Below the pieces are notes generated by a model, which was given only the letters and a program-made list of their open reading frames with translations, ran no database searches and had not been told where the DNA came from. A DNA stretch of 45,569 nt from Candidatus Omnitrophota bacterium (lineage in GTDB: Bacteria > Omnitrophota > Gorgyraeia > Duberdicusellales > 4484-171), in NCBI GenBank assembly GCA_041652815.1, contig JBAZGN010000006.1, forward strand, positions 1 to 45,569, in the 5' to 3' direction. Positions 14,729-42,533 of this stretch are shown here, in pieces; the stretch's first letter is position 1, and each line of letters opens with the position of its first letter. The translations under genes and the position numbers were made by a program.

Positions 14729-15181
14729 ATGTGGGAAGTTTACAGGAATGTCATCAGATGCTATCCAAAGATTTCTCTATCCGAAGAAAGGCTTTTGATT
14801 TATAAGGCTCAAAAAGGATCAAAGAAGAGCAAGGATAAAATTGTTTTTCATTATATTGGTTTCTTAATCTTTAGAATTCACAAAATAGTATTTCCTGAAC
14901 TGCTTCAGCGATTTGGCGAAGATTTACTTGAAGAAGCCATATTGGTTGTTTATAAAAAAATTGAAAGCTATAATCTTGATTATTGTGATAAGCAAGGTAA
15001 CCCTAAGCCTGTAAAGCTTGTTTCTTATATTTGGAAACGAATCGATGGGTTTATAATTGATTCTTTGAAGAAAGAATTGGTTGAATCAAACTATTACAAC
15101 CAGTACAGTGAATATAGTATCAAAAATACAGATTTATCGCTGATGTCCACGTCAAGAGAGGTAGACAATGCTATCTCTTAA
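14729..15181 (+). CDS. Sigma70 region 1.2/2-like protein lacking region 4
   Basis: LSEERLLIYKAQKG, EDLLEEAIL...KIESYN, KLVSYIWKRI align by eye to sigma regions 1.2/2; only 150 aa. Confidence 0.6.
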   Translation: MWEVYRNVIRCYPKISLSEERLLIYKAQKGSKKSKDKIVFHYIGFLIFRIHKIVFPELLQRFGEDLLEEAILVVYKKIESYNLDYCDKQGNPKPVKLVSYIWKRIDGFIIDSLKKELVESNYYNQYSEYSIKNTDLSLMSTSREVDNAIS

Positions 15182-15216
15182 TAGCTCAATGGATTGCAGA
15201 TTTTTCACCCAAAAAC

Positions 15217-15353
15217 AACCGGACAAAACGGACAAATTAGCGAGGGATTAACCTCTCTAATCCGCGAATTTCTTGATAATCACCCTATTTAGCCCTATAA
15301 TACATACTTGTAGATAGAGAGAGGTTTCCCCTCGTGGAATACGACTGGGACCC
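15217..15353 (+). repeat. Promoter-bearing dispersed repeat, copy A
   Basis: AACCGGACAAAACGGACA; arm CGAGGGATTAACCTCTCT 15241-58; TTGATA-N17-TATAAT 15273-15301; arm AGAGAGGTTTCCCCTCG 15318-34; GGGACCC. Confidence 0.9.
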
Positions 15354-15536
15354 TGTTTTAGTTTCAGGAGTGCTCGGGTTAAAAAAGGAGAGGGGATAGA
15401 TCTATTTTTATCAAAAAATTAGAACTATCCCCTTTGTTGTTATATAATAATTAAGTATTGTGTCCCCCGAATTCCGTCCCGAATTCCCTTTTGGATCGCT
15501 AACAACGGCAATGTTCGGCAAAAGAAGGAGAGCAAA

Positions 15537-16580
15537 ATGAGCATATTAGGAAAATCATTCGGATTAAAGCCGCGCGCGCCTGGAAGCATATTCAACAGAT
15601 TTATATTAGGTTTTGTCTTGGTGCTGATGTTAGCCGGTCAAACATTGTACGCTCAGCAAAGCGATGCTGACGGTAAGAAGCTTTCCGAGATCCGGGCTAA
15701 GGCAGAGAACGGTGATGTCGAAGCGCAGGTTGAATTTGGTCGTATATTATCGCAAGGTAGGCTTGGCGTGACTAAGGATGAAGTGGAAGCGGTGAAGTGG
15801 TTTCGTAAAGCCGCCGACCAGAACTTTTTTTCAGCTCAAGACTGTCTTGGTTTTTGTTACCTTCACGGTATAGGTGTGGAAAAGGATGAAGAGGAAGGAT
15901 TGAGGTGGTATTGTAAGGCTGCTGAGCAGAATTTCGCCGAAGCTCAATACACTTTGGGTGTTTTCTACCGCGATGGGCAATTTGTAAAGAAAAATTCACA
16001 GAAAGCGGTAGAATTGTTTCGAAAAGCTGCCGACCAGAACTATCTATCCGCTCAAACCAATTTGGGCCTCTGTTATCTCCATGGTGATGGCGTAGGGAAA
16101 GATCAGCAGGAAGGACTAAAGTGGCTTCGTAAGGCCGCTGAGCAGAATGATGTTTATGCTCAGCATAATTTGGCCCAGTGTTATAGCAATGGTGAAGGTG
16201 TAGAAAAGGATCAGCAGGAAGCGGTGAAGTGGTATCGCAAAGCCGCCGAGCAGAATTTCTACGCTTCTCAATTCAATTTAGGCTTCTGTTACTATAATGG
16301 CATAGGCGTGGGGAAAGATGATGCGGAAGCGGTTAAGTGGTATCGCAAAGCTGCTGAGCAGGGATTTGTTGCGGCTCAGGGTGCTTTGGGAGAATGTTAC
16401 TTCAGGGGTATAGGTGTGGTGCAAGATATGGCGGAGGCCTACAGGTGGTTTTTGTTGTCCGCGTCGCAAGGTGATAAGGAAGCTAATATACGTGCGCGGC
16501 AAACTGAAAAGAAATTAAAAAAGGATCAAATTGCAGAAGTAAAGAAGCAAGTGGCTGAATGGATCGAACGGAACAAGTAA
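15537..16580 (+). CDS. Exported Sel1-repeat protein
   Basis: Multiple EAVKWYRKAAEQ / AQxNLG repeats; signal peptide. Confidence 0.92.
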   Translation: MSILGKSFGLKPRAPGSIFNRFILGFVLVLMLAGQTLYAQQSDADGKKLSEIRAKAENGDVEAQVEFGRILSQGRLGVTKDEVEAVKWFRKAADQNFFSAQDCLGFCYLHGIGVEKDEEEGLRWYCKAAEQNFAEAQYTLGVFYRDGQFVKKNSQKAVELFRKAADQNYLSAQTNLGLCYLHGDGVGKDQQEGLKWLRKAAEQNDVYAQHNLAQCYSNGEGVEKDQQEAVKWYRKAAEQNFYASQFNLGFCYYNGIGVGKDDAEAVKWYRKAAEQGFVAAQGALGECYFRGIGVVQDMAEAYRWFLLSASQGDKEANIRARQTEKKLKKDQIAEVKKQVAEWIERNK

Positions 16581-16603
16581 GCCACTAACTAAAAGGAGTT
16601 GTT

Positions 16604-17326
16604 ATGCAACCATCTTTGCTAAAGACCGGATCGTATCGTTTAATAAAATTCAGAAAAATATTTGCCGCAGGTTCTTTTTGCGTTTTATTAATTTTAGGGA
16701 TCACCGGATGCGCGACCATGGCGACTAATCCTGAGGCAGGGTTTATTCCGAACGAACAGGAAGGGATCGTTTTTGGCCAGATGCAAATTCTCATTGAGGG
16801 GAATCTTTATCGTTACGACGGAAAGAAGCTTTTCGGGGTTGTGTGCCCACAGATGATTGTTACGCACGTTTCGCCTTATTCCGATGAGCAATCGGTTAAT
16901 ACCAACATCCTTCTTCCTGGAAAACTGGCTTTTAAAACCCAGATAGCCGATAATGGATACTTCACGGCAAAATTACCGGTAGGTAGGTATTATGTAAGTG
17001 AATTCATGTTTTATTTGCCGAATTACGTGTCCTTCCCTCCGGCATACTTACAGTTCCCCAAAGGATATAAGACCTATATGTACAGTGCAGGATTAGAACC
17101 ATCCGATCCCAAAATTGTCATATTCGATGTTTTTCCGAATAAGGCCACCTACATCGGGACATTTATACATAGAGTAGACACTGGTGATGACAAGAAGACG
17201 TCTCTAAATGTACGAATCAAAAATGAATATGACGCGTGTAAATCCGTGTTTCTGGCCGCGCATCCAGTGAGCGAGGAATCTATTGTTTCGGAGCCGGCCA
17301 CGTCTATTCCTTATAAGAAAATGTAG
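16604..17326 (+). CDS. Putative lipoprotein
   Basis: Lipobox-like GITG-C after a hydrophobic stretch; RBS AAGGAG. Confidence 0.6.
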   Translation: MQPSLLKTGSYRLIKFRKIFAAGSFCVLLILGITGCATMATNPEAGFIPNEQEGIVFGQMQILIEGNLYRYDGKKLFGVVCPQMIVTHVSPYSDEQSVNTNILLPGKLAFKTQIADNGYFTAKLPVGRYYVSEFMFYLPNYVSFPPAYLQFPKGYKTYMYSAGLEPSDPKIVIFDVFPNKATYIGTFIHRVDTGDDKKTSLNVRIKNEYDACKSVFLAAHPVSEESIVSEPATSIPYKKM

Positions 17327-17440
17327 GCAGAGGGCCGGGCTTTCGTATTCGCCCTGTGCCGTGGGGACGTTCCCAAAAATGACATCCTGGGATTATAAGG
17401 TGTCCACAAATAGGATGGTCCCAATAGGACAACTACTGCA

Positions 17441-18100
17441 ATGACTTCCAAATCAAAGAAATCATTTATTTTCATGCCAACTAAGGCCGAGTGGCGTCAG
17501 CTGAAATTGATTTTCGGCATCTCAGTACTGGTAGCGCTCGCCATTCCTATAGTCATCACCATGGTTTGTCGACTCGGCCAACGGAAAGACGAACGGGAAC
17601 TTGCACCATTTGTTCCTCATGAAACCGAATACGGGACTATAATAAAAGCGGCTCTTGGATCATCACGCGTCCAGACTTCCACATCCAATCTCCCGCTAAC
17701 GATACGGGGAAAGTTGCTTCCGATGTGGCGTGGCTCGAACGGCCAAAATGCGATCGCTCTCGAAGAGCTACGTCAGCTTCCAGGCACTTTACGTCCACGC
17801 TCCCATGAAGAGGTTGGAACGCTAGTTATCTGGGAAAGCGAAAAAGTCCAAATTGGCTGTTATGACGATAAAAACGGCAATGGCGCTAACGCTTACAAGC
17901 ACTATATTTACTTAACATTTGTAGACGTGCAGACGGCATCAGTGATCGCCCGATATACTTTTACTGGCAGTGATCCATCGCAGGTGATCAGAAGGGATTT
18001 TCTAGGCGGATTTGTTGACGGAGAGGGCTCATACCCACTCGACGAAGCTAGAGTTTTCATCCGGTCAGTTACTTTGGCAGGCAAGCCCGCCGGCAAATAG
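17441..18100 (+). CDS. Hypothetical protein with N-terminal TM anchor
   Basis: Long ORF with one TM; no family recognised. Confidence 0.6.
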   Translation: MTSKSKKSFIFMPTKAEWRQLKLIFGISVLVALAIPIVITMVCRLGQRKDERELAPFVPHETEYGTIIKAALGSSRVQTSTSNLPLTIRGKLLPMWRGSNGQNAIALEELRQLPGTLRPRSHEEVGTLVIWESEKVQIGCYDDKNGNGANAYKHYIYLTFVDVQTASVIARYTFTGSDPSQVIRRDFLGGFVDGEGSYPLDEARVFIRSVTLAGKPAGK

Positions 18101-18139
18101 ACGCACCGGATCTAGGCAGATAGAATAAGCCGGTGTTGA

Positions 18140-18360
18140 TGCTACAAAATGTCCACCTTTATAGGGTGGACATTTTGTAGCAATTTTCCGTATAAAGAGT
18201 TACGTAATTTCTATCCAAAAACGAGCGGACAAATTGGACAATTTAGCGAGGAAAATAACCTTTCTAAAATGCGAATTTCTTGATAATCACACTATTTAGT
18301 CCTATAATGCATACATATAGATACCGAGAGGTTTCTTCTTGACAAATAATAGGGGGACCC
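18140..18360 (+). repeat. Promoter-bearing dispersed repeat, copy B, with perfect 18 bp hairpin
   Basis: TGCTACAAAATGTCCACC-N7-GGTGGACATTTTGTAGCA 18140-82; GGACA x2; TTGATA-N17-TATAAT 18280-18308; GAGAGGTTTC..GGGACCC. Confidence 0.88.
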
Positions 18361-18439
18361 AAAATTTGCACCTTGCGGCAGTACAAAAACTCATAAATTA
18401 CGAATTCGTATATTATATGTTAGGCGAAGAAGAGGAAGA

Positions 18440-19366
18440 ATGATGAATTGGTTCAAGTCCATATTCAACAAGACGACCACTGCTGACACTGGAACAACAC
18501 CAACGAGAATCGTGTCATCCACTGATCGTTTTAGTCGGGATCCAATAGTTAAGTGCCTCGTGGATGCGTATCGCACGAACATCTACTATGGAATACCAGA
18601 GAAGGAAAAGGAGAAGGCCCAGAATATACTCAAAGGAGCAGGCCCTGAAGCGGTTCCAGTAATTATACAGGCGCTTGATCAGCTACATTTCGATGCCAGA
18701 GAAGACAAATATTCACAAGAGGAACACCCCTTTCTCAAGATTTCCGTCACTTCCTACGTTCGCTATCTTATTGGGATTCTTCTGGAAATCGGTGACGAAC
18801 GTGCGGTGGATATTCTGCTTAGACACTTTGCGTTTGACGCGGAAAGCGCAGGTTCGCTTGCGGACAAGATTTCGCAGTTCTGTACACGAATCGGCACCAA
18901 GAAAGCAACTACTGCATTGATTGAGTATCTGGATGATGATCTCACGCGTTTGCGAGCAGTCTATGGCCTTGGGCTGTTGGCAGACGACCGAGCAACCAAT
19001 ATGCTTATGTCTGCTTTGGAGAAGTATGGCGATGACGTCAGAAGTCAGTTGAAGTATTCAAAAACATCTTTTGCGGAAGGCCTAATTGCTCAATGGGAGA
19101 GGAAACGCAAGGAATCAGGCCTACGCGTCGAAAGCATGAGAGATGCGGAGATGATCAAGATACTCAAGAAACTATGCAAAGCCTATATGGATAATGACAA
19201 GGAAACCATCACTTACAATGAGCCAATCGCCAGAGACATCGGAGAGGAACTAGACCGACGTGGCGGGCTAGTGGAGATGCGGCGGGTTTTCGCTTTACTG
19301 AATGGATGCCCTGGTTCTCGCACACTTGAGATGCACTGGCATCGTATCGGCCAGTGGATGGGATAG
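18440..19366 (+). CDS. HEAT/PBS-lyase-like repeat protein
   Basis: GPEAVPVIIQAL, IGDERAVDIL, LRAVYGLGLLADDRA. Confidence 0.7.
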   Translation: MMNWFKSIFNKTTTADTGTTPTRIVSSTDRFSRDPIVKCLVDAYRTNIYYGIPEKEKEKAQNILKGAGPEAVPVIIQALDQLHFDAREDKYSQEEHPFLKISVTSYVRYLIGILLEIGDERAVDILLRHFAFDAESAGSLADKISQFCTRIGTKKATTALIEYLDDDLTRLRAVYGLGLLADDRATNMLMSALEKYGDDVRSQLKYSKTSFAEGLIAQWERKRKESGLRVESMRDAEMIKILKKLCKAYMDNDKETITYNEPIARDIGEELDRRGGLVEMRRVFALLNGCPGSRTLEMHWHRIGQWMG

Positions 19367-19438
19367 GAGTGTGACTGGAAACTGCCTGAATTACTGCCCG
19401 GTGCAAAAATTATATCTGTTTTTTGTAGCTTCCCGCAC

Positions 19439-19637
19439 AATGTCCACCTTTAAGAGGTGGACATTATATATCTGACTGAAGCCAAAAGAATTACAGTATT
19501 TTGTCCCCGCAATTACCGGACATTCCGGACAAATTACGCGAGGGAATACCTCTCTAAAACCCAAATATATTGCCATAACGCCGTATTGCCTATATAATCC
19601 TTCTATATAAATAGCGAGAGGTTTCGAGGAGGATCCC
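19439..19637 (+). repeat. Promoter-bearing dispersed repeat, copy C
   Basis: AATGTCCACCT-N5-AGGTGGACATT 19439-65; TTGCCA-N17-TATAAT 19570-98; 19514-19625 matches copy D at 111/112 nt. Confidence 0.9.
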
Positions 19638-19707
19638 AGTTTTAGAGAAAAGTCACAAAAAACGAATTTGTATATTATATGTTGGCCATAATCAAGGAGG
19701 AAAATGG

Positions 19708-21093: not shown

Positions 21094-21192
21094 CCACTGG
21101 AGGCATCGTACGTCGCTTAGGACCTTTGGGGACATGTCAAAAAGGGACGCACAAATTAATTAGAGTGTCCCAAAGTGGCGCGTTCCTGGTAG

Positions 21193-21465: not shown

Positions 21466-21618
21466 ATACCGCCTCTTCTGGCTTCGCCGGGCTATCAGCA
21501 CCGGTTTCTTATTCCAAAAACATCGTGATATTTATAGCATAGCCAAATTTGTATGGTATTTGTCCACGAAGATGTTTCCGCCGTCTTTACGCCCGCAACA
21601 AAAATTCAAACCAAAAAA

Positions 21619-21755
21619 TACCGGACATTCCGGACAAATTACGCGAGGGAATATCTCTCTAAAACCCAAATATATTGCCATAACGCCGTATTGCCTATAT
21701 AATCCTTCTATATAAATAGCGAGAGGTTTCCCCTTGTGGAATATGAGTGGGACCC
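21619..21755 (+). repeat. Promoter-bearing dispersed repeat, copy D
   Basis: 112 nt (21619-21730) match copy C with one mismatch; right hairpin CTTGT-GGAAT-ATGAG, GGGACCC. Confidence 0.9.
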
Positions 21756-21875
21756 GTCTTTTTACTTTCAGTAAAAAGGCAGAGAATCGAAAATTGAAAG
21801 TAGAGAATAGATGAAAATAGATTTTCGATTCGGTCAAATCTCGAATTTCGATTTTCAAAGAAAAAAGGAGAGGGT

Positions 21876-22562
21876 ATGGAGCGATTTTTATTAAAAATTA
21901 AAACTATGATTAAATTAAACTTATTCCGAAAAACTGGGATTTTGTTTGTTATTACTGTGTTGTTTCTGTTAGGAACGGCAACTTTGGCTTTTGCTAAATC
22001 ATCTCAAGAGGAATTGTCCACAGACGATTCTAGCCCGCTTAAAGATACGGTTATACTTATTATCCGTCACGCGGAAAAACCAACCAGCGGTGTTGAATTA
22101 TCTCCAGAAGGTGAAAAGCGAGCCAAGGCTTATGTAGGATATTTTCAGAGATTTACAATTGACGGCAAACCTATAAAACTGGATTATTTATTTGCGACAG
22201 CCGACTCCGCAAAAAGCCATCGCCCGCGCTTAACCATAACGCCGCTTAGCAAGGCGCTTGGCATTGAAATTGACAGCAGGTTTACGAACGATAATTTTTC
22301 GAAATTGGCACAAGAAATCCAGAATCATCCTCACGGTAAAAATATTTTGATCTGTTGGCATCATGGAGAAATTCCTCATCTGCTTTTCGCTCTGGGTGTT
22401 GATCCCGAAAAACTCATTCCCAATGCCAAATGGCCGGAAGATGTGTTTGGTTGGTTAATCCAACTGCGCTACGACAAGAACGGACAATTATTTGACATCA
22501 AGCGTATTGACGAAAATTTGTTGCCAGACGATTTGAACAAAGATACACTGGCTGCGCCTTGA
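21876..22562 (+). CDS. Exported histidine-phosphatase (phosphoglycerate mutase-like) family protein
   Basis: IIRHAEKP, LSPEGEKRA, RPRLT, CWHHGEIP. Confidence 0.75.
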   Translation: MERFLLKIKTMIKLNLFRKTGILFVITVLFLLGTATLAFAKSSQEELSTDDSSPLKDTVILIIRHAEKPTSGVELSPEGEKRAKAYVGYFQRFTIDGKPIKLDYLFATADSAKSHRPRLTITPLSKALGIEIDSRFTNDNFSKLAQEIQNHPHGKNILICWHHGEIPHLLFALGVDPEKLIPNAKWPEDVFGWLIQLRYDKNGQLFDIKRIDENLLPDDLNKDTLAAP

Positions 22563-22576
22563 AATATAATTTTGAT

Positions 22577-22709
22577 TCGACAAAACAGACATCTTAGCGA
22601 GGGGACAACCTCTCTAAGCTGCTACTTCCTTGATAATCACCACTTTTAGCTCTATAATACATATCTGTAGATAGAGAGAGGTTCACTTTGTGGCAAATAC
22701 GCGGGACCC
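22577..22709 (+). repeat. Promoter-bearing dispersed repeat, copy E
   Basis: TTAGCGAGGGGACAACCTCTCTAA; TTGATA-N17-TATAAT 22630-58; AGAGAGAGGTT..GGGACCC. Confidence 0.85.
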
Positions 22710-22805
22710 TTACATAATCTTATGAGCGAAGCGAATTAGAGTGTGTTATCCAACCGAGTTCTTAAAATTTTCGAAGAAAATTTTAAGATATACAGCGAGG
22801 TTGGA

Positions 22806-22888
22806 CAGTAATTCTCTTCTCTAGCCACAGAGGAGAGAGGATCAAAGCTCTGATTCCTAACGGTAATCAGGGCTTCTTTATTTGTCGT
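22806..22888 (+). terminator. 83 nt double-hairpin/terminator repeat block, copy 1
   Basis: CTCTTCTCT-N6-AGAGGAGAG, then AGC(T/C)CTGATT-N9-AATCAGGGCT plus CTTTATTT; 82/83 identical to 29410-29492. Confidence 0.75.
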
Positions 22889-22898
22889 CCTGCTGTTT

Positions 22899-23018
22899 TC
22901 ATTTAGCTGCATACAGAGAGGCCGTCCCCTTTTTAAAACCAAAATATCTTGCCATAGCGCCATATTTCTATATAATTCTTTTGGAGAGGTTTTTCCTTGT
23001 GGAATACGAGCGTGGCCT
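22899..23018 (+). repeat. Hybrid repeat copy F (type II arm fused to type I promoter)
   Basis: TCATTTAGCTGCATACAGAGAGGCCGTCCCCT joined to TAAAACCAAAATATC-TTGCCA-N16-TATAAT..GAGAGGTT..CTTGTGGAATACGAG. Confidence 0.75.
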
Positions 23019-23056
23019 GTCTTTTCTACGCAAAGCCCCTTAAGCCTTACGAGCAT

Positions 23057-23851: not shown

Positions 23852-23904
23852 TTTTAAAAAATCTAGCAGTAATTCTGAAAATTGAGGAAATCTGTAAACA
23901 TATT

Positions 23905-24072
23905 CGGATAGGGAATAATCTCTCAGATCTTCCAATGGCCACGTACGGAGACCCCCCCCTGGGGATTATCTCTGTTCTTCGAAGTGGATAAAGAAGGGTT
24001 CTCTAACCTTTCAAGAGCTGTTTACAGAGAGGCCATTCCCTTGTGGATTTTTCTGTCCTTCTTCCGGGGACC
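23905..24072 (+). repeat. Degenerate repeat copy G (left arm + type II right part)
   Basis: GGGAATAATCTCTC 23911-24; AGCTG..ACAGAGAGGCCATTCCCTTGTGGATTTTTCTG..GGGGACC 24016-72. Confidence 0.6.
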
Positions 24073-24152
24073 ACCCCCGCTATTTAACCCATGCCTTATC
24101 TTCTTGAGGTTGAGAATGACAGTGGTACAATATAATTTTATAACTATTGCAT

Positions 24153-28154: not shown

Positions 28155-28161
28155 TTCCGCT

Positions 28162-28251
28162 TATTACAATCAATATAATGAATACAGCATCAAAGGAACG
28201 GATTTATCGTCAATGTCCAGCTTAACGGAGGCAGATATTCCTATCCTATAA
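28162..28251 (+). pseudogene. 3' remnant of the sigma-like gene
   Basis: YYNQYNEYSIKGTDLSSMSSLTEADIPIL* matches the 14729 C-terminus YYNQYSEYSIKNTDLSLMSTSREVDNAIS*. Confidence 0.85.
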
Positions 28252-28286
28252 CAGTACAATAATTTGCATAATTTCCAGCCCAAAAT

Positions 28287-28424
28287 AACCGGACAAAGCG
28301 GACAACTTTAGCGAGGGAATACCTCTCTAAAACCCAAATATCTTGCCACAACACCACATTGCCTATATAATTCTTCTATATAAATAAAGAGAGGTTTCCC
28401 CTCGCGGAATACGAGTGGGGCCCC
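28287..28424 (+). repeat. Promoter-bearing dispersed repeat, copy H
   Basis: Arms 28311-28 and 28388-405 are 16/18 complementary; TTGCCA-N17-TATAAT 28343-71. Confidence 0.9.
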
Positions 28425-28476
28425 AACTTATTCGAGTTTTTGTAAGTTCTTATAATTTATAAAGAAGGAGTAAAAA

Positions 28477-29250
28477 ATGTTATATTATCAACCAACAGAT
28501 GAAAATTCCTTGCGTCATTTGTTTGCTTGCGCTGAGGAGATATTGAAAATTTCATATTTGGGGCAAGTGCCTAATGAATACGGATATGATGATAGCCCTG
28601 ATTGTTTGGTGCTTGATAAGCGAAATGAGGATAGGTATGAAATAAAAAGGTGTGAATTTAAATGGGATCTCAAAAATGGAAGTGCCGATTTCGCGCATAA
28701 TGGTAAGTTTGATATCGCGATTATATGGGATTTGCCAGGACATATTCCCCAAGAAAAGCTAGAAAGTGAATTGAGAGAAAATAATGGATGTACAGAGATA
28801 ATTATTTTAAAAGAAAAACAGAGTTTTTATAAATTGAACTTATATCCTACAAAAATAGAAGAAATAAAGAAACAGTTATTAATAAAGGAGTTAGACAAGT
28901 TTAGAGAAAAAATTCTTGGCCTAGAGTTAGCAACAGTTCACGCGGCCTATATAGCGGCTAAACGAACTAAATTTTCGCTAGATGCGGTGTTAGGCTATTT
29001 AACTAAGAAATTCCCAGAAGTGGAAAAAATGGCTCCCCAAGGTAGGGCGAATGTCGTTACTGCTCTTGTCCAAATGAAGTTAATAAAAAGACTACATGGA
29101 AGATATTATCAGTGGTCAGGAAATATTTCTCCTGCTCGTGCGTCCGCAGAGATTGAAAAAATATTACGTGATAACTTTGAGGTAGAAATTCCTAATATGA
29201 ATGGTGTGGATTTTACATCTTTAATAAAGAAGAAAAGAAGAAAAACCTGA
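28477..29250 (+). CDS. Hypothetical protein with PD-(D/E)xK nuclease-like motif
   Basis: PDCLV...RCEFKW; RBS AAGGAG; function not established. Confidence 0.5.
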   Translation: MLYYQPTDENSLRHLFACAEEILKISYLGQVPNEYGYDDSPDCLVLDKRNEDRYEIKRCEFKWDLKNGSADFAHNGKFDIAIIWDLPGHIPQEKLESELRENNGCTEIIILKEKQSFYKLNLYPTKIEEIKKQLLIKELDKFREKILGLELATVHAAYIAAKRTKFSLDAVLGYLTKKFPEVEKMAPQGRANVVTALVQMKLIKRLHGRYYQWSGNISPARASAEIEKILRDNFEVEIPNMNGVDFTSLIKKKRRKT

Positions 29251-29296
29251 ACCAATTGAAAAAGGCTATTTTTAACGCCTACTATACAGAAATAAA

Positions 29297-29410
29297 CGAG
29301 GGATTATCTCTCTAAAGTTGCAATATTGAGCATATATCAAGGTAACTCCTATGTATAAGCTTTATTAGTGAGCAGAGAGGTTTCCCCTCGTGGTATACGA
29401 GTGGGGCCCC
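29297..29410 (+). repeat. Repeat copy I (degenerate promoter)
   Basis: CGAGGGATTATCTCTCT ... AGAGAGGTTTCCCCTCGTGGTATACGAGTGGGGCCCC. Confidence 0.85.
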
Positions 29411-29492
29411 AGTAATTCTCTTCTCTAGCCACAGAGGAGAGAGGATCAAAGCCCTGATTCCTAACGGTAATCAGGGCTTCTTTATTTGTCGT
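29410..29492 (+). terminator. 83 nt double-hairpin/terminator repeat block, copy 2
   Basis: Near-identical to 22806-22888; abuts copy I directly. Confidence 0.75.
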
Positions 29493-29671
29493 GCTGGTAA
29501 AGACTTACGGCGTTCAATCTATTGGTTTCATAATAAAAATTCCTACCCGCAAGCTGTTTTAAAAACCCCTCTGGATTAAGCCAATTCTACGCCAAAATAA
29601 GCAAATTTATCTCTTATTTAATGATGGCTATTTAATGCTAATATCGGTAATATTTTACGCTATTTAAATTC

Positions 29672-29733
29672 TCATTTAGCTGTATGCAAAGAGGTCGTCC
29701 CCTTGTGGATTATGTCTGCCCTTCGTGAGGGGA
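29672..29733 (+). repeat. Type II repeat arm
   Basis: TCATTTAGCTGTATGCAAAGAGGTCGTCCCCTTGTGGATTATGTCTGCCCTTCGTGAGGGGA. Confidence 0.75.
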
Positions 29734-29872
29734 TTGTGAAAGATTTTCTGACCTTGCTTGAGCTGTAAACGGAAAGGTCGTTTCGTTTACCTAATTTTTC
29801 CTTTCCCCCGGTACATTAGGCATCTTTTAAACATGGTAATAATAGGATACGATATCTATTTAAATAAAATAC

Positions 29873-29902
29873 TTGACATACCATACCCCTCTATGGTATA
29901 CT
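29873..29902 (+). promoter_or_regulatory. csoR promoter with CsoR-type operator
   Basis: TTGACA 29873-78, TGgTATACT -10; ATACC-N7-GGTAT 29883-99 in the spacer. Confidence 0.75.
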
Positions 29903-34101: not shown

Positions 34102-34116
34102 GTAAGTGGGTGCAGA

Positions 34117-34322
34117 TGTCTACCTAAGAGAGACTGTCATTTTATATCTATCTACGCCTCAAATAATTACTAAATTTTCAGCCAAAAACAACCGAACAAA
34201 CGGACATTTTCACGAGAGAATAATCTCTCTGAATTACGGATTTCTTGATAATCGCCGTATTTAGCACTATAATGCATACCTATAAAAAGCGAGAGGTTTC
34301 CCCTTGTGGATTTTTCTGCTCT
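34117..34322 (+). repeat. Repeat copy J with decayed sigma-like gene tail
   Basis: GATGTCTACCTAAGAGAG aligns to the sigma-like 3' end; TTGATA-N17-TATAAT 34245-73; GAGAGGTTTCCCCTTGTGGA. Confidence 0.85.
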
Positions 34323-34350
34323 TCTTTGCTGGATTACCCATATAAAGTTC

Positions 34351-34396
34351 TTGACAAAAAAACATGCTCTGCTATATTATTGGCATATGCCAATAA
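34351..34396 (+). promoter_or_regulatory. Promoter with perfect 20 bp palindrome upstream of the DUF134 gene
   Basis: TTGACA 34351, TGcTATATT; TTATTGGCATATGCCAATAA 34377-96. Confidence 0.7.
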
Positions 34397-34411
34397 CTAA
34401 AAGAGGTTTGT

Positions 34412-35667: not shown

Positions 35668-35855
35668 GAATATTTCCAATCAAATTCTTATTTACCTGTA
35701 AACGGAGGGGTAGCCTCCTTATGAATTTGTCTGCCTTTCAATAAGGATACACTTATCAAATTTATCAATCTATGTGCGGAGATGATTTCTTTCTATGGAA
35801 TATTGCTGTGTAGTAAAGATATCTTTCTGGGATTCATGCGTAATTTCTAAAAGCG

Positions 35856-35884
35856 TTGATAAAGTGTAGCATTGAGTTTATAAT
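35856..35884 (+). promoter_or_regulatory. sigma70 promoter of the glycosidase/glycosyltransferase operon
   Basis: TTGATA-N17-TATAAT. Confidence 0.6.
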
Positions 35885-35958
35885 AAAAATATTAGGGAAA
35901 GAGATTGTCACCTGAATTTTAAGCGGCAGCATTTTATGTAACAAACAAAAGGGGTCAA

Positions 35959-36981: not shown

Positions 36982-37000
36982 TCGGAATTTTTTATTAAAA

Positions 37001-39250
37001 ATGAATACAACTTTTAAGATTGTTTATTTATCCACTTTCCCTTCCAGAGAGTGCGGCATAGCTACTTTTACTGCAGACCTAACGGCTGCGATGGATGATT
37101 TACTCGGACCTGTCATTGAATCGAGAGTAGCCGCACTTAATCTTGATGATGTCTCACGTTACAGCTATTCAAGAAAAGTTATTTTCCAAATAAACCAGTA
37201 TTCTGAGCAGGAATATATTAAAACTGCTAAAAGCATCAACGATATGAATGAGGTTAAGCTTGTTAATATTCAGCATGAATTTGGTATCTTTGCAGGCGAA
37301 TACGGTTCATACGTTATTTCTTTCCTGTCGGCGCTCAAGAAACCATCGGTTGTAACTTTTCACAGTATCTTGCCTTCGCCAGAGGAGAAACGTAAGGCGG
37401 CAGTCCGTTCGATAGCCGAAAAAGCAAGCGGATTAGTCGTGATGACTAATCTTTCAAGGGAGATTCTTATCCGTGAATATGGGGTAGCTGAAGAAAAAAT
37501 TTCAGTGATTCCGCACGGCATCCATTCTATGCCCTATGTCTCCAGTGCAAAAAATAAGGCTACGTTAGGCCTTCCAAAAAAGGTAAACCTTTTGACGTTT
37601 GGATTGTTAAGCAGAGGCAAAGGCATTGAATATGTAATAGAGGCTTTGCCCAAAGTTGTTAATGCCTACCCGGATATTTTGTATATAGTTTTAGGGGTTA
37701 CTCATCCGAATGTTCTTAAAGAAGAAGGGGAAAGCTATCGTAAATCCCTAATCCAAAAAGTTTACGATCTTGGGCTTTCTTCTCACGTAAATTTTTATAA
37801 TGAGTATGTTTCTGTGGATAAGCTTCTTCATCTTTTAAGGTCCGCGGATATCTATATTTCAACTTCTCTCGACCAGAATCAAGCTGTTTCAGGGACATTC
37901 TCTTATGCGTTGGGTTCGGGAAGGCCGGTAATCTCCACTCCTTTTGCGCAAGCAAGAGAAGTCATTACTTCTGAGTTAGGGAGATTAGTTAATTTTAGGG
38001 AACCGGGTTCTTATGGCGAAGCTATCATGAGCCTTTTGAAAGATTCTTCTTTAAGGGAGCAACTTGGAAAGAACGCATATTACAGGACCCGTAATATGAC
38101 ATGGGAAAATGTTGCCCTTGAGTATTCAAAATTATTCTCAAAATATTCCAGCGATATCGCCGGAGTAAGCGAACACAAGAAAATTCCCCGGATTAATCTT
38201 AATCACATTCTTCGTCTTACAGATGATTTTGGGATTATACAGTTCGCCAAGCTGTCTTTACCGGATATTTCATCGGGTTATACGCTTGATGATAACGCGC
38301 GAGCCCTGATAGTTGCGTGTTTATGTTATGGCGAATTGGGAAAGGCGTTTAAAGCGGTGTATCCTGAAAGGCAGAAAAGTGAATTGCTCAAACGCATAGA
38401 GGTGTATTTAAATTTTATTAAATTTGTTCTAGGCGATGATTGTGTGTTTCACAATTATGTAAAGCCCGACAGGTCAATAAATATCGAGCTTAACAAAAAA
38501 GACAACCTTGACGATGCTAATGGCCGGGCTCTTTGGGCATTGGCGGTAGCCGCCACGGCAGATTACTTACCGGACAGCGTAAGGGATAAAGCCTTTTTTT
38601 TAATAAAGAAAAGGGTAAAAATGTATAAAATGTTTGAATCTCCGCGGTCAATCGCTTTTTGCGCAAAGGGGATTTACCTGCTTTTAAAAAAAATACAGGA
38701 GATTGAAGGTAAGGACTTAAAGGAATTATTGGTTGTTCACTGCGATAAGTTAGTATCGCTTTATCAGGGAGCATCATCTGAGGAATGGCAGTGGTTTGAA
38801 CATTACTTGACTTACTCTAATGCTGTTTTGCCGGAGGCTCTTATTTTGGGGCACGAACGTACCGGTAATAGGGAATATCTGGATATAGGCATTAAGACAT
38901 TGGATTTTCTGATAGGCAAGACTTTTGTCGGCAGGACATATGCACCAATAGGCCAGGATGGTTGGCATCATAAGTTTGGAGAGCGCCGCTATTTCGATCA
39001 GCAACCAGAGGATGTTTCGGCGATGATCTACGCTCTTGCTACGGCGCATGCGCTAACCGGAGAGGATTCTTATAGAAAGCTTATGCATGAAGCTTTTAAC
39101 TGGTTTTTAGGTGACAATAGCCTGAAGCAGGTTGTTTATGACAGGATTACGGGGGGATGTTATGACGGCCTGGGAGAGAGAAATATTAACCTTAATCAAG
39201 GGGCTGAGTCTACTTCGTCGTATCTGCTGGCAAGGCTTGCTATGGTATAG
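37001..39250 (+). CDS. GT4 glycosyltransferase fused to a C-terminal (alpha/alpha)-barrel-like domain
   Basis: STFPSRECGIATFT, IQHEFGIF, FGLLSRGKGIE, GYTLDDNARAL, NQGAEST; ATG 37001. Confidence 0.88.
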   Translation: MNTTFKIVYLSTFPSRECGIATFTADLTAAMDDLLGPVIESRVAALNLDDVSRYSYSRKVIFQINQYSEQEYIKTAKSINDMNEVKLVNIQHEFGIFAGEYGSYVISFLSALKKPSVVTFHSILPSPEEKRKAAVRSIAEKASGLVVMTNLSREILIREYGVAEEKISVIPHGIHSMPYVSSAKNKATLGLPKKVNLLTFGLLSRGKGIEYVIEALPKVVNAYPDILYIVLGVTHPNVLKEEGESYRKSLIQKVYDLGLSSHVNFYNEYVSVDKLLHLLRSADIYISTSLDQNQAVSGTFSYALGSGRPVISTPFAQAREVITSELGRLVNFREPGSYGEAIMSLLKDSSLREQLGKNAYYRTRNMTWENVALEYSKLFSKYSSDIAGVSEHKKIPRINLNHILRLTDDFGIIQFAKLSLPDISSGYTLDDNARALIVACLCYGELGKAFKAVYPERQKSELLKRIEVYLNFIKFVLGDDCVFHNYVKPDRSINIELNKKDNLDDANGRALWALAVAATADYLPDSVRDKAFFLIKKRVKMYKMFESPRSIAFCAKGIYLLLKKIQEIEGKDLKELLVVHCDKLVSLYQGASSEEWQWFEHYLTYSNAVLPEALILGHERTGNREYLDIGIKTLDFLIGKTFVGRTYAPIGQDGWHHKFGERRYFDQQPEDVSAMIYALATAHALTGEDSYRKLMHEAFNWFLGDNSLKQVVYDRITGGCYDGLGERNINLNQGAESTSSYLLARLAMV

Positions 39251-39327
39251 AAGGGCAATGGCGTAGGTAAATTAAAGGTTACTTAATTTTATTTACTCTA
39301 ATTATATAAGAGCTGTGCGGGTGATAA

Positions 39328-39606
39328 ATGCGAAAAGTTATTAAGAAGTGGGGATGGTATAAAGTTCTGGCGAAAGGAAATGGATTTAAGGTTAAGTTAT
39401 TGTATCTTAAGCCGTTTGGGCAAACAAGTTTACAAAGACATAAACACAGGAGAGAGACATGGGTGTTCCTTGGCAGCCAAGAAGTAAAGATAGTAGAAAG
39501 GCTTAAGTGGCATCGCTTGAAGAATCCAGGCAAGAATGGATTAAGGTTAATAGAGGTGCAAACAGGGATATGCCATGAAAGAGATATAGAAAGGCAAAGG
39601 GAGTAG
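39328..39606 (+). CDS. Cupin resembling type II mannose-6-phosphate isomerase C-terminal domain
   Basis: KWGWY, SLQRHKHRRETW, WHRLKN, IEVQTG, DIER. Confidence 0.75.
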   Translation: MRKVIKKWGWYKVLAKGNGFKVKLLYLKPFGQTSLQRHKHRRETWVFLGSQEVKIVERLKWHRLKNPGKNGLRLIEVQTGICHERDIERQRE

Positions 39607-39609
39607 CAG

Positions 39610-39823
39610 GCTTTGGCGGTTTTTGGTATCAATTCATATAGCTTTTACGCTATAGTTAAGGCCATTAACCGATGCGCAGGTGTTAATAATTTATTTAATG
39701 CTTCGCTATCTTTCAATAAAAGACATTCAAATGGATAAAAACAAAGTTTTATTTGTCCATGTGTATAATTCAGCATGTGACCAAATAGTCGATGTCCGGT
39801 GTTTTGAACCAGATAAAACATAA
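39610..39823 (+). pseudogene. Decayed acr3 C-terminus plus arsC N-terminus
   Basis: ALAVFGINS..[frameshift]RPLTDAQVLI..[frameshift]FNASLSFNKR resembles the Acr3 end; MDKNKVLFVHVYNSACDQI (39731-39823) resembles the ArsC start. Confidence 0.6.
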
Positions 39824-39863
39824 CTATTTAGCTTCAAAAGAGTTAGACGATTTCTGGGTAAAA

Positions 39864-39979
39864 ATAACCGGACAAATAGAACAAATTTAGCGAGAGGATA
39901 TTTCTCAAATTTACCAATAGCTGCCTACGGAGAGGATGCCCCCTCTCGTGGATTATGTCTGCCCCTGGTGAGAGGAGTC
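39864..39979 (+). repeat. Hybrid repeat copy K (type I left part + type II right part, no type I promoter)
   Basis: AATAACCGGACAAATAGAACAAATTTAGCGAGAGG joined to AGCTG..GGAGAGGATGCCCCCTCTCGTGGATTATGTCTG..GGAGTC. Confidence 0.75.
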
Positions 39980-40037
39980 ACCTCTTAAATTTTACAATAA
40001 GCGTCTCTTAGGAATTCCCGTACAACTTTTAAAACCG

Positions 40038-40066
40038 TTGCTAAGATTTGGTACCGAGCCTATAAT
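40038..40066 (+). promoter_or_regulatory. sigma70 promoter flanked by a short inverted repeat
   Basis: TTGCTA-N17-TATAAT; CCCGTAC 40017-23 / GTACGGG 40071-77. Confidence 0.55.
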
Positions 40067-40234
40067 ATAAGTACGGGTGAAATAAATCATCTCCTGAACC
40101 TGAAGAAAATTACGATCGGTCGCTTACGATACTTTTGAATAAAACGCAAAGTATTTAATTAAATAAAAGCTTAAGGTGTTTGATTTTTGAAGCATAGAAA
40201 CGGCACTGTTTTTACTTAAAAAGATAGGAGAAGA

Positions 40235-40795
40235 ATGGGTTTTTTTGGTTTGATTTTGGCATTTAGTCCTTGGATCCTCTTTGCGATTATTACGTCCGGG
40301 CATACCCTGCTGCGGCTTAAAGTAGCCGTTATAGTTTCTTTTATAGCGGTTGTCATACTGGGATTTACAAAGATACACCGGGGTTTTATCCTCTGGGCCG
40401 GGGTCGCATTCTTTACCTTTAACCTTATTGCGGTAGTGATAATGAACAACGTCTGGGTTGCAAGGCATATGGGTATTCTGGCGAGCGGGACGCTGGCTAC
40501 CGCTACTTGGCTGTCGATTCTCCTTGGGCATCCGCTTACGCTTGCATATGCGCGCGCCTCTGTAGAAAATAAAGAGTGGAGTTCTCCCGGATTTATCCGG
40601 ACGGGTTACATAATGACAGGATTCTGGGGGATTGTATTCTTGGCGAATCTCCTGGTGAATATCGCCAAGTTGTATTACAGCGGCATTGCCGGGTGGATAT
40701 ATGAATTTATGCAGTACGGATTTCTTTTGATCGGGATGCTCTTTACGGTTTATTATCCGAAGCTGCATATAAAGAGACAGAGTATGAGAAAATAG
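40235..40795 (+). CDS. Hypothetical multi-TM membrane protein
   Basis: About 6 hydrophobic segments; RBS AGGAG. Confidence 0.65.
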   Translation: MGFFGLILAFSPWILFAIITSGHTLLRLKVAVIVSFIAVVILGFTKIHRGFILWAGVAFFTFNLIAVVIMNNVWVARHMGILASGTLATATWLSILLGHPLTLAYARASVENKEWSSPGFIRTGYIMTGFWGIVFLANLLVNIAKLYYSGIAGWIYEFMQYGFLLIGMLFTVYYPKLHIKRQSMRK

Positions 40796-40893
40796 AGGTA
40801 GTTCAATGCGCCCCCGGAGCTGTCCTAGTTGCTCTGGTATCTCAGCCGCGAGAAGGAGCCTGTTAAGAGAAGTAAATGATATAGGAGAGTAAA

Positions 40894-42099
40894 ATGAAAA
40901 AATTATTTAGCACCGTGTTAGCTCTGTGTTTTTTGGTTTCGATTGCTTACGCGCAAGAGATGAAAGCCGTCTCTGAGTTTGAAGGGGGAAAGCTGTACAA
41001 GGCCGGGAAGATAAACGTCCTCGAGCTTCGCGGAAGCTATCGCCAGATGGGCAGGCAGTATGGAGGGCTTCTTAAAGGCGATTGGGAGAAGTGTTACCAG
41101 ATCGCTTTTGAAAAATATTTCATCGGTAACAACGGCATGACTTACGAGACCCTCGATAAGATCGCTAAGGACTATTTCAGGAGATTGCCGAAGAGATTGC
41201 AGGACTTGATATACGGGATGGCAGAAACTTCCGGTATCTCCCTAGAAAAACATATCCTGCTGAATACTCTCGATGCCTGCGCCGAGATATGGGGCGCATA
41301 CGGCAAGTTGATACCGGGTACCCAGGGCATGGGCTGTTCCGCAATCGTAGCCTGGGGTAAATACACCGGTGGCGGGCCGCTAGTCGTAGGCCGTAATTAT
41401 GATTATTTATCTTATTTTGAAGAACTCCTGCCTTTTATGGAATGTGTTGTCTATAATCCGAACGACGGCTCCATACCGACAGCGAGTTTTGCGTTCCTAG
41501 GCGCCGTGTACACACAAAATGGCATGAACAAAAACGGAATATTCCTCGAACTTAATGATGAGGAGTCGACCGGGGCCATCACCAGGCGCGACCGGGTTCC
41601 AAACATGGCCAACCTAATGCTTTTCCTGCTCGACTACCCCACCATGGATGGCATAAATACCGGATTTAACACTACGCTGCCGGATTTCGCCTGCATTATA
41701 CAGGTGGCCGATAAAGATGCTGCTTATTCATATGAGTGGGCGACGTACGGATTACGCCGGAAAGCGGGCAGCGCGGACGGGCTGCTGGCGGTATCGAACG
41801 ATTTTACCGATCCGTCGTGGGGACTATGGCCGTCTCCACTAGGAGAGAGCACAGAGAGGCGTGAAAACCTCTACGCCCTCGGTGATAAGTACAAAGGCAG
41901 GCTTAATGTCGATACCATGAAAAAGCTATTGGGAATACCTATCGATAAAGGTGGCGCGACACGGCCTAAAAACCCTAAAATCGAGACTTTGTACCAGATG
42001 ATAGCCGTTCCAGCCGAGCTTAAGTGGTGGATAAACCTGACCGGCTATCAGGGCTGGACCGAGATCAATCTGGCCCCGCTTTTTGCGAAGGAAGAATGA
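40894..42099 (+). CDS. Exported C45-family Ntn-hydrolase (peptidase/acyltransferase)
   Basis: Signal peptide, G-C-SAIVAWG nucleophile site, VGRNYDY, GMNKNGI. Confidence 0.8.
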   Translation: MKKLFSTVLALCFLVSIAYAQEMKAVSEFEGGKLYKAGKINVLELRGSYRQMGRQYGGLLKGDWEKCYQIAFEKYFIGNNGMTYETLDKIAKDYFRRLPKRLQDLIYGMAETSGISLEKHILLNTLDACAEIWGAYGKLIPGTQGMGCSAIVAWGKYTGGGPLVVGRNYDYLSYFEELLPFMECVVYNPNDGSIPTASFAFLGAVYTQNGMNKNGIFLELNDEESTGAITRRDRVPNMANLMLFLLDYPTMDGINTGFNTTLPDFACIIQVADKDAAYSYEWATYGLRRKAGSADGLLAVSNDFTDPSWGLWPSPLGESTERRENLYALGDKYKGRLNVDTMKKLLGIPIDKGGATRPKNPKIETLYQMIAVPAELKWWINLTGYQGWTEINLAPLFAKEE

Positions 42100-42142
42100 T
42101 TAGCGGATAAAGGGGCTATCCCTGAACCTGAATTTACGCGGT

Positions 42143-42220
42143 AATCGCTCTAGTTGGCCTTATAATACAGTCTTGTATTATATAGAGAGGTTTCCTCTCG
42201 GCTAATACGAGAGTGACCCC
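42143..42220 (+). repeat. Left-truncated repeat copy L
   Basis: Promoter-spacer-like AATCGC..GGCCT, TATAAT 42161-66, AGAGAGGTTTCCTCTCG-N7-CGAGAG, GACCCC. Confidence 0.7.
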
Positions 42221-42384
42221 AGTTTTTTCTCTTTGAGAAAAAACTGGCTCCGTAGCCCTTCGTGAAAATATCCTGCTGTTTTAGGTAGTGTGGATATTTT
42301 CACGATATCTAGGGGCAAGGAGCTACATATATTTTTGAGATATATAGCAGCAAGGGGCAATGTTTCTTTTCTCAGCTAATTCAA

Positions 42385-42533
42385 AGAGAGGATCAGAGCC
42401 CTGATTCCTAACGGTAATCAGGGCTTCTTTATTTGTCGTCCTTCTTAGAAAGAATGTTTATTAATTTTTCATTTAGCTGTATGTAGAGAAGCCGTCCCCT
42501 TGTGGATTCTATCTGTCCTTAATGAAGGGAGTC
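42385..42533 (+). repeat. Terminator block copy 3 (partial) plus type II arm
   Basis: AGAGAGGATCAGAGCCCTGATTCCTAACGGTAATCAGGGCTTCTTTATTTGTCGTCC; TCATTTAGCTGTATGTAGAGAAGCCGTCCCCTTGTGGA..GGGAGTC. Confidence 0.75.

Follow-up and report, generated by a model that had tools for sequence, protein, structure and literature searches.

The DNA analysed here, termed the window, is the whole 45,569-bp contig C6 of Candidatus Omnitrophota bacterium, one of seven contigs of a 2.0-Mb genome, and carries every gene on the + strand. Its intergenic regions harbor a repeated unit, the module, which occurs between 15.1 and 42.5 kb in two types, with 11 copies of type I and 8 of a related type II that has no promoter, all co-oriented. 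The unit stands ahead of nearly all operons of a gene array whose content varies between strains. The repeat is proposed, at a probability of roughly 55%, to be a conserved cassette for punctuation and expression, found in a subset of Omnitrophota, which also supplies homology for the gain, loss and shuffling of gene blocks.

In the mechanism proposed, a hairpin at the head of the unit (H0) would end the upstream transcription unit. A near-consensus sigma-70-type promoter would then start a transcript about 10-15 nt before the motif GAGAGG, and the RNA would fold into a second structure, hairpin P2. In the complete form, the RNA would continue through CCCCAGUAAU, a second hairpin and a terminator to give a small RNA of ~110 nt, commonly with a type II unit next, before an operon. 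In the truncated form, the promoter and the 5' head of the RNA would be fused to a gene and serve as its promoter and leader. Tandem boxes and two inverted arms around the promoter may be operator sites for a DNA-binding regulator, which would place the small RNAs and the fused genes under common control. The many diverged, co-oriented copies within a few tens of kilobases would supply portable homology; thus, copies may recombine, convert or duplicate one another, or do so with incoming copy-bearing DNA, and in this way add, delete and reorder blocks and make the region a flexible, accessory-gene part of the genome. A dedicated recombinase would not be needed.

Anatomy and copies of the module

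Copies were located by repeat finding (families D2-D11), a profile hidden Markov model (HMM) and a covariance model; in addition, every intergenic region of the window was inspected and 11 copies were placed in one alignment. Outside the window, 79 loci around homologues of a gene for a sigma-region-2-only protein (14729-15181, here half-sigma) were searched with a profile of the window's copies. Type I modules were sought in the whole genomes of 41 relatives (covariance model) and in ten genomes from the half-sigma loci; G006 and G048 are a single genome.

In the cross-genome alignment, the type I unit is ~270 nt in length. It starts with H0 (ATGTCC, a variable yet complementary interior and GGACAT), often with a T-run after it, followed by TATCTC, AAAGAGTTACGTAATTTCCAGCCAAAAATGACC, the tandem boxes GGACAAA-N2-GGACAAA and the left arm, CGAGG-N5-CCTCTC. 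The -35 box comes next, then 17 bp, an invariant TATAAT, an A/T-rich box and an invariant GAGAGG, which is the right arm and mirrors the left. The unit ends with P2 and GGGWCCC. Upstream of the promoter, ~110 bp of DNA are conserved and include a TTACGTAA-like box. The invariant alignment columns are the GGACA boxes, TATAAT and GAGAGG. Of 19 copies, 11 have their two arms 68 bp apart, five 69 bp, two 70 bp and one 67 bp. The GGACA box lies 21-22 bp from the arm. All copies have a second, -10-like A/T-rich box between TATAAT and GAGAGG. P2 is paired in 86% of cells, with mostly C-to-U changes that retain G-U pairs on the + strand, and subtypes of the promoter spacer recur across different genomes.

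The tandem GGACA boxes (period 9), inverted-orientation arms and GGGWCCC hairpin of a preliminary description of this DNA are all present. The TGTCCAC..GTGGACA hairpin that it placed at the head of the unit is also found, but its general form is H0, ATGTCC-N-GGACAT, which heads nearly every copy in every genome. The sequence just 5' of H0 (TTTATCGTCTATGTCC) does likewise, whether or not the sigma-like gene adjoins. Type II units have the sequence AGCTGTTTAC-AGAGAGG-CCGT-CCCCTTGTGGATTATGTCTGCCC..GGGGA.

By the HMM and covariance model, the type I modules of the window start at 15205 (A), 18211 (B), 19502 (C), 21607 (D), 22562 (E), 22918 (F), 28275 (H), 29282 (I), 34178 (J), 39854 (K) and 42125 (L), all on the + strand; type II matches are at 22904, 23952, 24016, 29677, 34291, 35694, 39918 and 42474. 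The repeated same-orientation copies noted earlier are thus recovered by all three methods and go beyond what chance would give, although one of the roughly 12 then listed (copy G, 23905-24076) is a promoter-less type II unit. The -35/-10 boxes, described as fixed at a 17-bp spacing, are exact in seven copies (A, B, C, D, E, H and J), as TTG(A/C)(T/C)A-N17-TATAAT with TTGATA or TTGCCA; in F the spacer is N16, L has the degenerate form TTGGCC-N16-TATTAT, and neither I nor K has such a promoter. Module promoters make up eight of the 12 top-scoring (11/12) promoter-like matches across 14.5-34.4 kb. The promoter is thus of a conserved sigma-70 type, with fixed geometry and a functional look, and its activity is a prediction. 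The features are as follows.

14729..15181, + strand: half-sigma gene, 150 amino acids, sigma region 2 only; the last ~33 codons lie inside H0 of module A
15143..15353, + strand: module A, type I, with H0, two GGACA boxes (15221-15234), left arm, right arm and P2
15273-15301, + strand: predicted promoter of module A, TTGATA-N17-TATAAT; leader form, with the Sel1 gene block next
18146..18360, + strand: module B, type I, predicted promoter 18280-18308; H0 is a 20-bp terminator-like hairpin (18140-18182); HEAT-repeat gene next
19437..19644, + strand: module C, type I, with P2 lost after GAGAGGTTTC; ankyrin gene next; repeat families D3 and D4
21607..21763, + strand: module D, type I, predicted promoter 21675-21703; gene 21876-22562 next
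22562..22892, + strand: module E, type I in the predicted small-RNA form, with promoter 22630-22658, P2, an insert of ~100 nt, a CU/GA hairpin and a terminator (block 22806-22892, repeat family D9)
22896..23026, + strand: module F, a type II arm joined to a predicted type I promoter (TTGCCA-N16-TATAAT, 22949-22976) and P2
23952..24071, + strand: type II units (copy G of the preliminary description), ahead of a kinase/regulator/TrkH operon
28214..28431, + strand: module H, type I with H0, predicted promoter 28343-28371; gene 28477-29250 next; repeat family D10; 28156-28236 is similar to the half-sigma tail
29282..29743, + strand: unit I, the longest, with left arm, degenerate promoter, right arm, P2, CU/GA hairpin and terminator (predicted small RNA ~29375-29490), then a post-terminator segment and a type II unit (29677-29743); upstream of a CsoR-type operon that has its own predicted promoter (29873-29902)
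34117..34344, + strand: module J, type I, ending in type II-like sequence, predicted promoter 34245-34273; DUF134 operon downstream
35694..35740, + strand: type II unit upstream of GH130/glycosyltransferase genes; repeat families D6 and D8
39854..39985, + strand: unit K, promoter-less, with GGACA boxes, left arm, a 22-nt linker and a type II arm; the arrangement recurs at C1:793176
42113..42538, + strand: unit L, with degenerate promoter, right arm, P2, insert, CU/GA hairpin plus terminator (together 42357-42443) and type II unit (42474-42538); repeat family D9

Over a tract of 112 nt, modules C and D differ at a single position, which is consistent with gene conversion or recent duplication. 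Three further ideas about the unit were rejected. A long-range stem between the left and right arms of a read-through RNA (RNase III-type) is not borne out on inspection, as the right arm either does not vary or changes together with P2, and mismatches occur where the left arm varies. The heptads GGACAAA-N2-GGACAAA recall a CtsR-like repressor, but the genome is without CtsR. A short open reading frame (ORF) behind GAGAGG (GTG at +9, copies A and H) is not kept in other genomes.

Predicted RNAs, cargo and distribution

In complete copies, the predicted transcript runs past P2 through CCCCAGUAAU and another hairpin to a strong intrinsic terminator. Twelve pairs of the terminator stem show compensatory changes on both sides (13 copies, 10 genomes), and the second hairpin stays paired despite unrelated sequences (e.g., at locus L043). 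The fold of window copy I has a z of -3.5. The single-stranded CCCCAGUAAU linker is conserved, and one strand of the hairpin is CU-rich. At least five complete copies occur in this genome: at 22.7 (E), 29.4 (I) and 42.2 kb (L) of the window, at C1:770.7 kb and at C5:13.0 kb. By its sequence, which includes its own promoter, a covarying structure and a Rho-independent terminator, the complete form is the gene for a predicted, uncatalogued small RNA of ~110 nt. The element is undescribed, as the preliminary description supposed: no Rfam family is found in the whole window at the gathering threshold, nor in 28.2-29.8 kb by an E-value search, and the searchable literature on Omnitrophota with promoter, sigma factor or small RNA holds nothing relevant. 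A tRNA scan of the window gives zero genes. The ~100-nt insert of copy E is rich in hairpins and lies between P2 and the CU/GA hairpin (22710-22805); it has a counterpart in the congener G003 (L087:1700-1800), while the insert of copy L differs (42230-42355).

Terminator-less copies that run into a gene include A, B, D, F and H here and many in other genomes. The gap from the end of the module to the ORF is often 17-54 nt; thus, the terminator-less module is the gene's own predicted promoter and 5' leader. Module F, for example, is the predicted promoter of an outer-membrane beta-barrel gene, whose homologues in G005 and G050 each lie directly behind a module match, such that the pairing is found in three genomes. 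The order of type I module, terminator, type II unit and operon recurs in the window (E/F, I and L) and at six other loci (L008, L018, L023, L030, L084 and L087).

Most genes behind type I copies are specific to the strain and richer in G+C. A second assembly (isolate STD1_205; locus L005) is 99.7% identical to window 10957-15359, i.e., to the end of P2 of copy A; beyond P2, it has an unrelated leader of ~130 nt and then a 94%-identical start of the gene that here follows copy D. Thus, the 6.4-kb Sel1/HEAT/ankyrin block between copies A and D is strain-specific. The G+C content is 0.42-0.47 in the 15-21 kb block compared to 0.33-0.42 (mostly 0.33-0.39) in upstream windows. Five of the seven module-following genes tested (16604, 17441, 18440, 21876 and 28477) are without a homologue in 14 related genomes. 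The preliminary description was therefore right that unrelated genes follow the co-oriented copies, and passenger content, far from invariant, varies between strains and species. A second short repeat, AAAA.TCA.AAA.ACGAATT.GTATATTATATGTT.G, at 18386-18440 and 19648-19702 lies immediately before the HEAT and ankyrin start codons and could be a common proximal promoter or translation signal of both cargo genes.

Conserved operons are also located between the copies. The kinase/regulator/TrkH and DUF134 blocks are reordered in other genomes, and their borders carry modules of other promoter subtypes. The operon of DUF134, methyltransferase and NifX-like genes has its own promoter, TTGACA-N17-TATATT, which overlaps a perfect palindrome, ATTGGCATATGCCAAT, and is kept in six genomes (window 34351-34400; L006, L008, L030, L064 and L087); DUF134 protein itself probably uses this palindrome as its operator. 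The kinase operon likewise has its own TGGTACAAT promoter (window 24104-24131), kept in two genomes. A module is upstream of DUF134 in three of the six genomes and absent from the other three, and the kinase operon, too, has one only in part of the genomes. Given the operons' own promoters and the patchy module, the module is an intergenic unit in its own right, gained in some genomes and missing from others, and not a signal that belongs to the operon. The earlier proposal that each module arrives with its own promoter fails for these two operons.

Within the genome, 11 of 14 type I matches are on C6 in one 27-kb stretch, with two on C5 and one weak match on C1. Type II units continue at the neighboring contig end (C1:791-810 kb) in tandem 82-nt arrays. 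As a congener contig joins the C1 end to the C6 start, the array extends over ~65 kb, roughly 3% of the genome. The C1 type II arrays (C1:793220-793440, 805100-805250 and 809762-809950), with an 82-nt period and two or three units each, are upstream of TetR/RND, methyltransferase and Fur operons, each of which has its own promoter and palindromic operator downstream. On C5, a second copy of the NikR/porin/small-membrane-protein operon (C5:50116-52826; 77-84% identical) has a type II unit (C5:52859) and then a module fragment (C5:53076) behind it, where C6 has the sigma-like gene.

At least 11 further Omnitrophota genomes contain the type I unit, each with 3-8 copies, always in the orientation of the associated genes. 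Modules occur in 23 of the 79 sigma-like-gene loci, one to five each and on both sides of the gene. Of the 54 locus matches, a count that includes the window's 11, 52 are on the gene strand, and both minus-strand matches are weak echoes of the mirrored/palindromic arms. All ten genomes searched whole have 3-8 copies, mostly clustered on one or two contigs. Among the 41 relatives, three congeners have 3-7 copies and 34 genomes have none; a lone copy is present in a fourth congener (where it lies at a contig end), in one further genus of the family and in one further family. An even scatter in both orientations, as expected of a miniature inverted-repeat transposable element (MITE), is not seen; the copies are clustered and co-oriented instead.

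The sigma-region-2-only gene

The half-sigma gene that precedes module A is extremely well conserved, with 891 homologues, the best 120 at 65-77% identity; nearly all are of ~150 amino acids and from Omnitrophota and Elusimicrobia metagenomes. It is often located behind Znu or NikR/Cbi metal-uptake operons, as in the window. Sub-threshold Pfam Sigma70_r2 matches are found in 25 of 25 homologues (E 3e-4 to 0.1), with a weak PDB match to sigma-F regions 1.2-2.2 (E 0.28). Region 4 gives no match, and 150 amino acids leave no room for it; thus, the product of 14729-15181 does not have the pairing of region 2 with region 4 that marks the sigma-70 family. The AlphaFold model is of low confidence (pLDDT 55) and too poor for a fold search. 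The protein may be a metal-regulated RNA-polymerase-binding factor.

The link between half-sigma and the module is real as a physical and phyletic co-occurrence. Half-sigma is present in four of the 41 relatives, all of one genus, and multi-copy arrays occur in 4/4 genomes with the gene versus 0/37 without it. However, modules are scarce near its homologues (38 of 54 loci have none nearby), and single modules occur in two well-assembled genomes that are half-sigma-less, in one as the predicted promoter of an ordinary-looking gene. Both points count against a strict functional dependence, and the linkage of intact copies to the sigma-like gene, earlier put forward as a check, is seen for arrays but not for single copies.

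The final ~33 codons of half-sigma are found only where a module follows (boxes downstream in 16 of 54 loci), while the remaining homologues match only to about residue 117. Hence the sigma-like ORF runs into the module, and not vice versa. Copies H, B, C and J have sequence similar to the half-sigma tail ahead of them, which before H, C and J had been taken for relics of the 3' end of the sigma-like gene; it is instead the module's own 5' hairpin, as H0 also heads copies that are upstream of, or far from, the sigma-like gene in other genomes. A close relative of H0 also follows the small-RNA terminators.

At six loci (L017, L018, L022, L023, L028 and L030; about 10416-11468 in the 20-kb loci), a gene for a 350-amino-acid Fic/DOC protein with a winged-helix-like C-terminal tail is located between the half-sigma core and H0, and its insertion cuts the sigma-like ORF to ~136 amino acids. 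This gene after half-sigma had been considered as the missing sigma part before it proved to encode Fic/DOC. A split sigma factor, composed of half-sigma and the DUF134 region-4-like helix-turn-helix, was also rejected: DUF134 is present in 21 of 41 relatives versus four of 41 for half-sigma and, thus, the co-occurrence is not specific. A phage origin finds no relative of half-sigma among IMG/VR viral contigs.

Recombination, rival explanations and significance

A whole-genome search for tyrosine recombinases (PF00589) gives three matches, two of about 292-296 amino acids and one of 197, on C7, C3 and C4, with none on C6 or the C1 end; the ten other module-bearing genomes searched have 2-4 each (six in one), mostly Xer-sized. 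Serine recombinases number four in the genome, all large, and a small serine invertase is not found. The earlier statement that the window is without a recombinase thus holds, though two of the large serine recombinases, at C1:768-778 kb, are 13-23 kb upstream of the first C1 type II copy. The only Y1 (HUH) transposase match in the genome is weak and on another contig, and a gene of this type is beside a module only in G006:C16; linkage of intact copies to a tyrosine recombinase or HUH transposase is accordingly absent from the genome's own array.

One of the C1 recombinases is part of a compact unit. At C1:768060-770900, a tRNA gene with a terminator is followed by TTTATCTGGCGATGTCCCTAGGAGTTATGGCG, a large serine recombinase gene (768495-770126, minus strand) with a 152-amino-acid partner gene, a promoter-less small-RNA copy with its terminator, and TTTATCTGGCGATGTCCCTAGGAGTTATGGCG again, such that direct copies of the motif bracket the unit. 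It looks like a small integrative unit whose attachment site would be the motif that follows small-RNA terminators elsewhere. The second recombinase pair is at C1:775907-777982. A candidate inverted subtype-1 promoter in copy I and beside the C1 recombinase was rejected, as copy I aligns forward over its whole length; C1:770.5-770.9 and 777.9-778.3 kb give no profile match on either strand.

These genes bear on an account in which genes are captured site-specifically, with H0, the arms or GGGWCCC as attachment sites, a recombinase (C1 large serine or XerCD) acting in trans, and cassettes composed of leader, gene(s) and H0, every junction rebuilding a promoter-bearing site. Several observations point this way: module boundaries are sharp, with the strain indel ending exactly at the P2 end, and cargo is strain-specific; H0 has an attC-like conserved base with a variable complementary interior; the recombinase unit at C1:768.3-770.9 kb is bracketed by direct post-terminator motifs and carries a small-RNA copy; the Fic gene is between the sigma-like core and H0 at six loci; and large serine recombinases are located near clusters in other genomes. 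Yet the 45-kb array is without a recombinase, the tyrosine recombinases are of Xer size and on other contigs, and breakpoints differ (P2 end in L005, mid right arm in the C/D tract, after the arm in hybrid F). No shared half-site or motif just after P2 or before H0 was seen by eye at a handful of cargo ends, without a formal motif search. Conserved operons with their own promoters sit between copies, and a conserved small-RNA gene plus promoter accounts for the conservation without recombination. Site-specific capture is thus quite unlikely. Rated equally low is the related view of the cassette as the landing and expression site of a recombinase-in-trans capture system peculiar to Omnitrophota. 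Insertion would occur just after GGGWCCC or at the ATGTCC..GGACAT hairpin, like the motif that brackets the C1 recombinase unit, and the insert would at once gain a strong promoter under shared control, a 5' head that stabilises the RNA, and a terminator. The result would be an analogue of the integron in which every cassette has its own promoter; the patchily distributed sigma-region-2-only protein might be a dedicated transcription factor.

The integron-like platform of the preliminary description finds no support in the defining features tested (integrase and att signature). Like integrons, the array is co-oriented, strain-variable in its genes and built on a recurring structured element with a conserved hairpin base. 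It differs in having no adjacent IntI-type gene and no attI or attC (the H0 base is ATGTCC/GGACAT, not attC GTTRRRY), in that most units carry their own -35/-10 where integrons have promoter-less cassettes and a single Pc, and in that the element is a predicted small-RNA gene. Tandem genomic islands at the 3' end of a target gene are bounded by direct repeats of that end and carry an integrase; the array has half-sigma-tail-like sequence ahead of copies H, B, C and J, an element that also heads copies distant from the gene, and is without an integrase, the large serine recombinases being at C1:768-778 kb. The minimal mobile elements (MMEs) of Neisseria and capsule-locus switching, in which cassettes are exchanged by homologous recombination between conserved flanks, are alike in that differing gene blocks are found between conserved sequences with no dedicated recombinase. 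The conserved flanks in the Omnitrophota array, by contrast, are the short, repeated, regulatory cassettes, 65-80% identical to one another, and are not unique housekeeping genes.

A different account holds that the repeat is primarily a multicopy, trans-acting small RNA, with the conserved boxes as sites for its regulator, gene fusions decayed or co-opted and the link to variable genes incidental. The CiaR-dependent csRNAs of streptococci, Qrr1-5 of Vibrio and PrrF1/2 of Pseudomonas are multicopy regulator-dependent small RNAs of this type, and share with the cassette paralogous RNAs of ~100 nt with their own promoter, direct-repeat boxes, a conserved 5' part, a pyrimidine-rich stretch and a terminator. 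The complete copies here and the many elsewhere with covarying terminators fit such a role, as do the single-stranded linker and the CU-rich hairpin strand, and the direct-repeat boxes resemble the response-regulator sites of the CiaR-csRNA system. However, the cassette promoter and RNA head are also fused to many protein genes, with longer upstream DNA and mirrored arms, and the copies are packed and co-oriented in one flexible region. The terminator-less promoter-plus-P2 copies are equally conserved and close to ORFs in many genomes and, thus, appear to be used, not decaying. Moreover, the promoter-less type II derivative is conserved in tandem arrays, and a simple seed-target scan with the CCCCAGUAAU linker returned only cassette copies and a few scattered matches, with no convincing complementary targets. 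A primary role as a small RNA is considered unlikely. Attenuation or processive antitermination, in which the strong promoter would constitutively give the short terminated RNA and a factor, perhaps half-sigma at the -10-like element, would drive read-through of the terminator and the type II unit into the operon, is analogous to lambda PR'-6S RNA-tR', where the antiterminator Q controls the late genes. The likeness includes a strong promoter and short terminated RNA before genes, protein-binding elements around the promoter and a -10-like element in the initial transcript; the recurring order of units, the A/T-rich box before GAGAGG in all copies and the coincidence of multi-copy arrays with the sigma-like gene agree with it. 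Such a switch is nevertheless very unlikely, as no Q-like protein is known for the cassette, the operons behind full units have conserved promoters of their own, many copies are terminator-less, two half-sigma-less genomes have single modules, most sigma-like loci are module-less, and the binding and read-through are hypothetical.

Most improbable is a selfish repeat with an outward promoter, or a promoter inverted between the arms. The Correia elements of Neisseria, pneumococcal BOX elements and enterobacterial BIME/REP sequences, which are scattered genome-wide in both orientations, are likewise small, modular and intergenic; their inverted arms and hairpins recall the cassette, and they can serve as promoters, terminators or RNA-processing sites. 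Inverted arms around a promoter segment of ~60 bp, REP-like H0 at gene ends, a BOX/BIME-like mosaic make-up and the Y1 gene that adjoins the module in G006:C16 would suit this origin. The cassette family, by contrast, is regional, strictly gene-oriented, much longer and encodes a predicted terminated RNA; no target-site duplications were seen, the conserved unit reaches far past the arms on both sides, and the genome has no linked transposase. Against an inverting promoter, none of ~55 copies in about 24 genomes is flipped, the arm spacing of ~68 bp is short, and neither an invertase gene nor a nearby tyrosine recombinase accompanies the inverted arms.

The reading of the repeat as a punctuation and expression cassette has difficulties of its own. 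No regulator has been identified for the boxes or arms, and promoter use, the points at which transcription starts and the small RNA itself are predicted. Pairing in P2 is no higher than in shuffled controls; the conservation of P2 could act at the DNA level. Copies A and D are only ~65% identical, a poor RecA substrate and, thus, the A/D strain indel is not simply a homologous crossover. Sharp boundaries (H0 start and GGGWCCC end) and spacer subtypes would also fit movement by another mechanism, and large serine recombinases occur 7-30 kb from module clusters in five of the ten distinct module-bearing genomes searched.

Omnitrophota are uncultured, and gene control and exchange in this group are almost wholly uncharted. 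The cassette represents a new, widespread family of predicted small RNAs with a rigid promoter region in which four or five DNA elements are at fixed distances, and may be a natural promoter, leader and terminator part for gene expression in these bacteria. It also marks the flexible genome, as the genes that follow are strain-specific and include Sel1, HEAT and ankyrin-repeat proteins, a type of protein that serves in cell-cell interactions. Should the sharp boundaries of the blocks stem from site-specific insertion, the cassette would be part of a new kind of gene-capture system; if insertion is not site-specific, it would be a clear case of a regulatory repeat that shapes genome plasticity through recombination.

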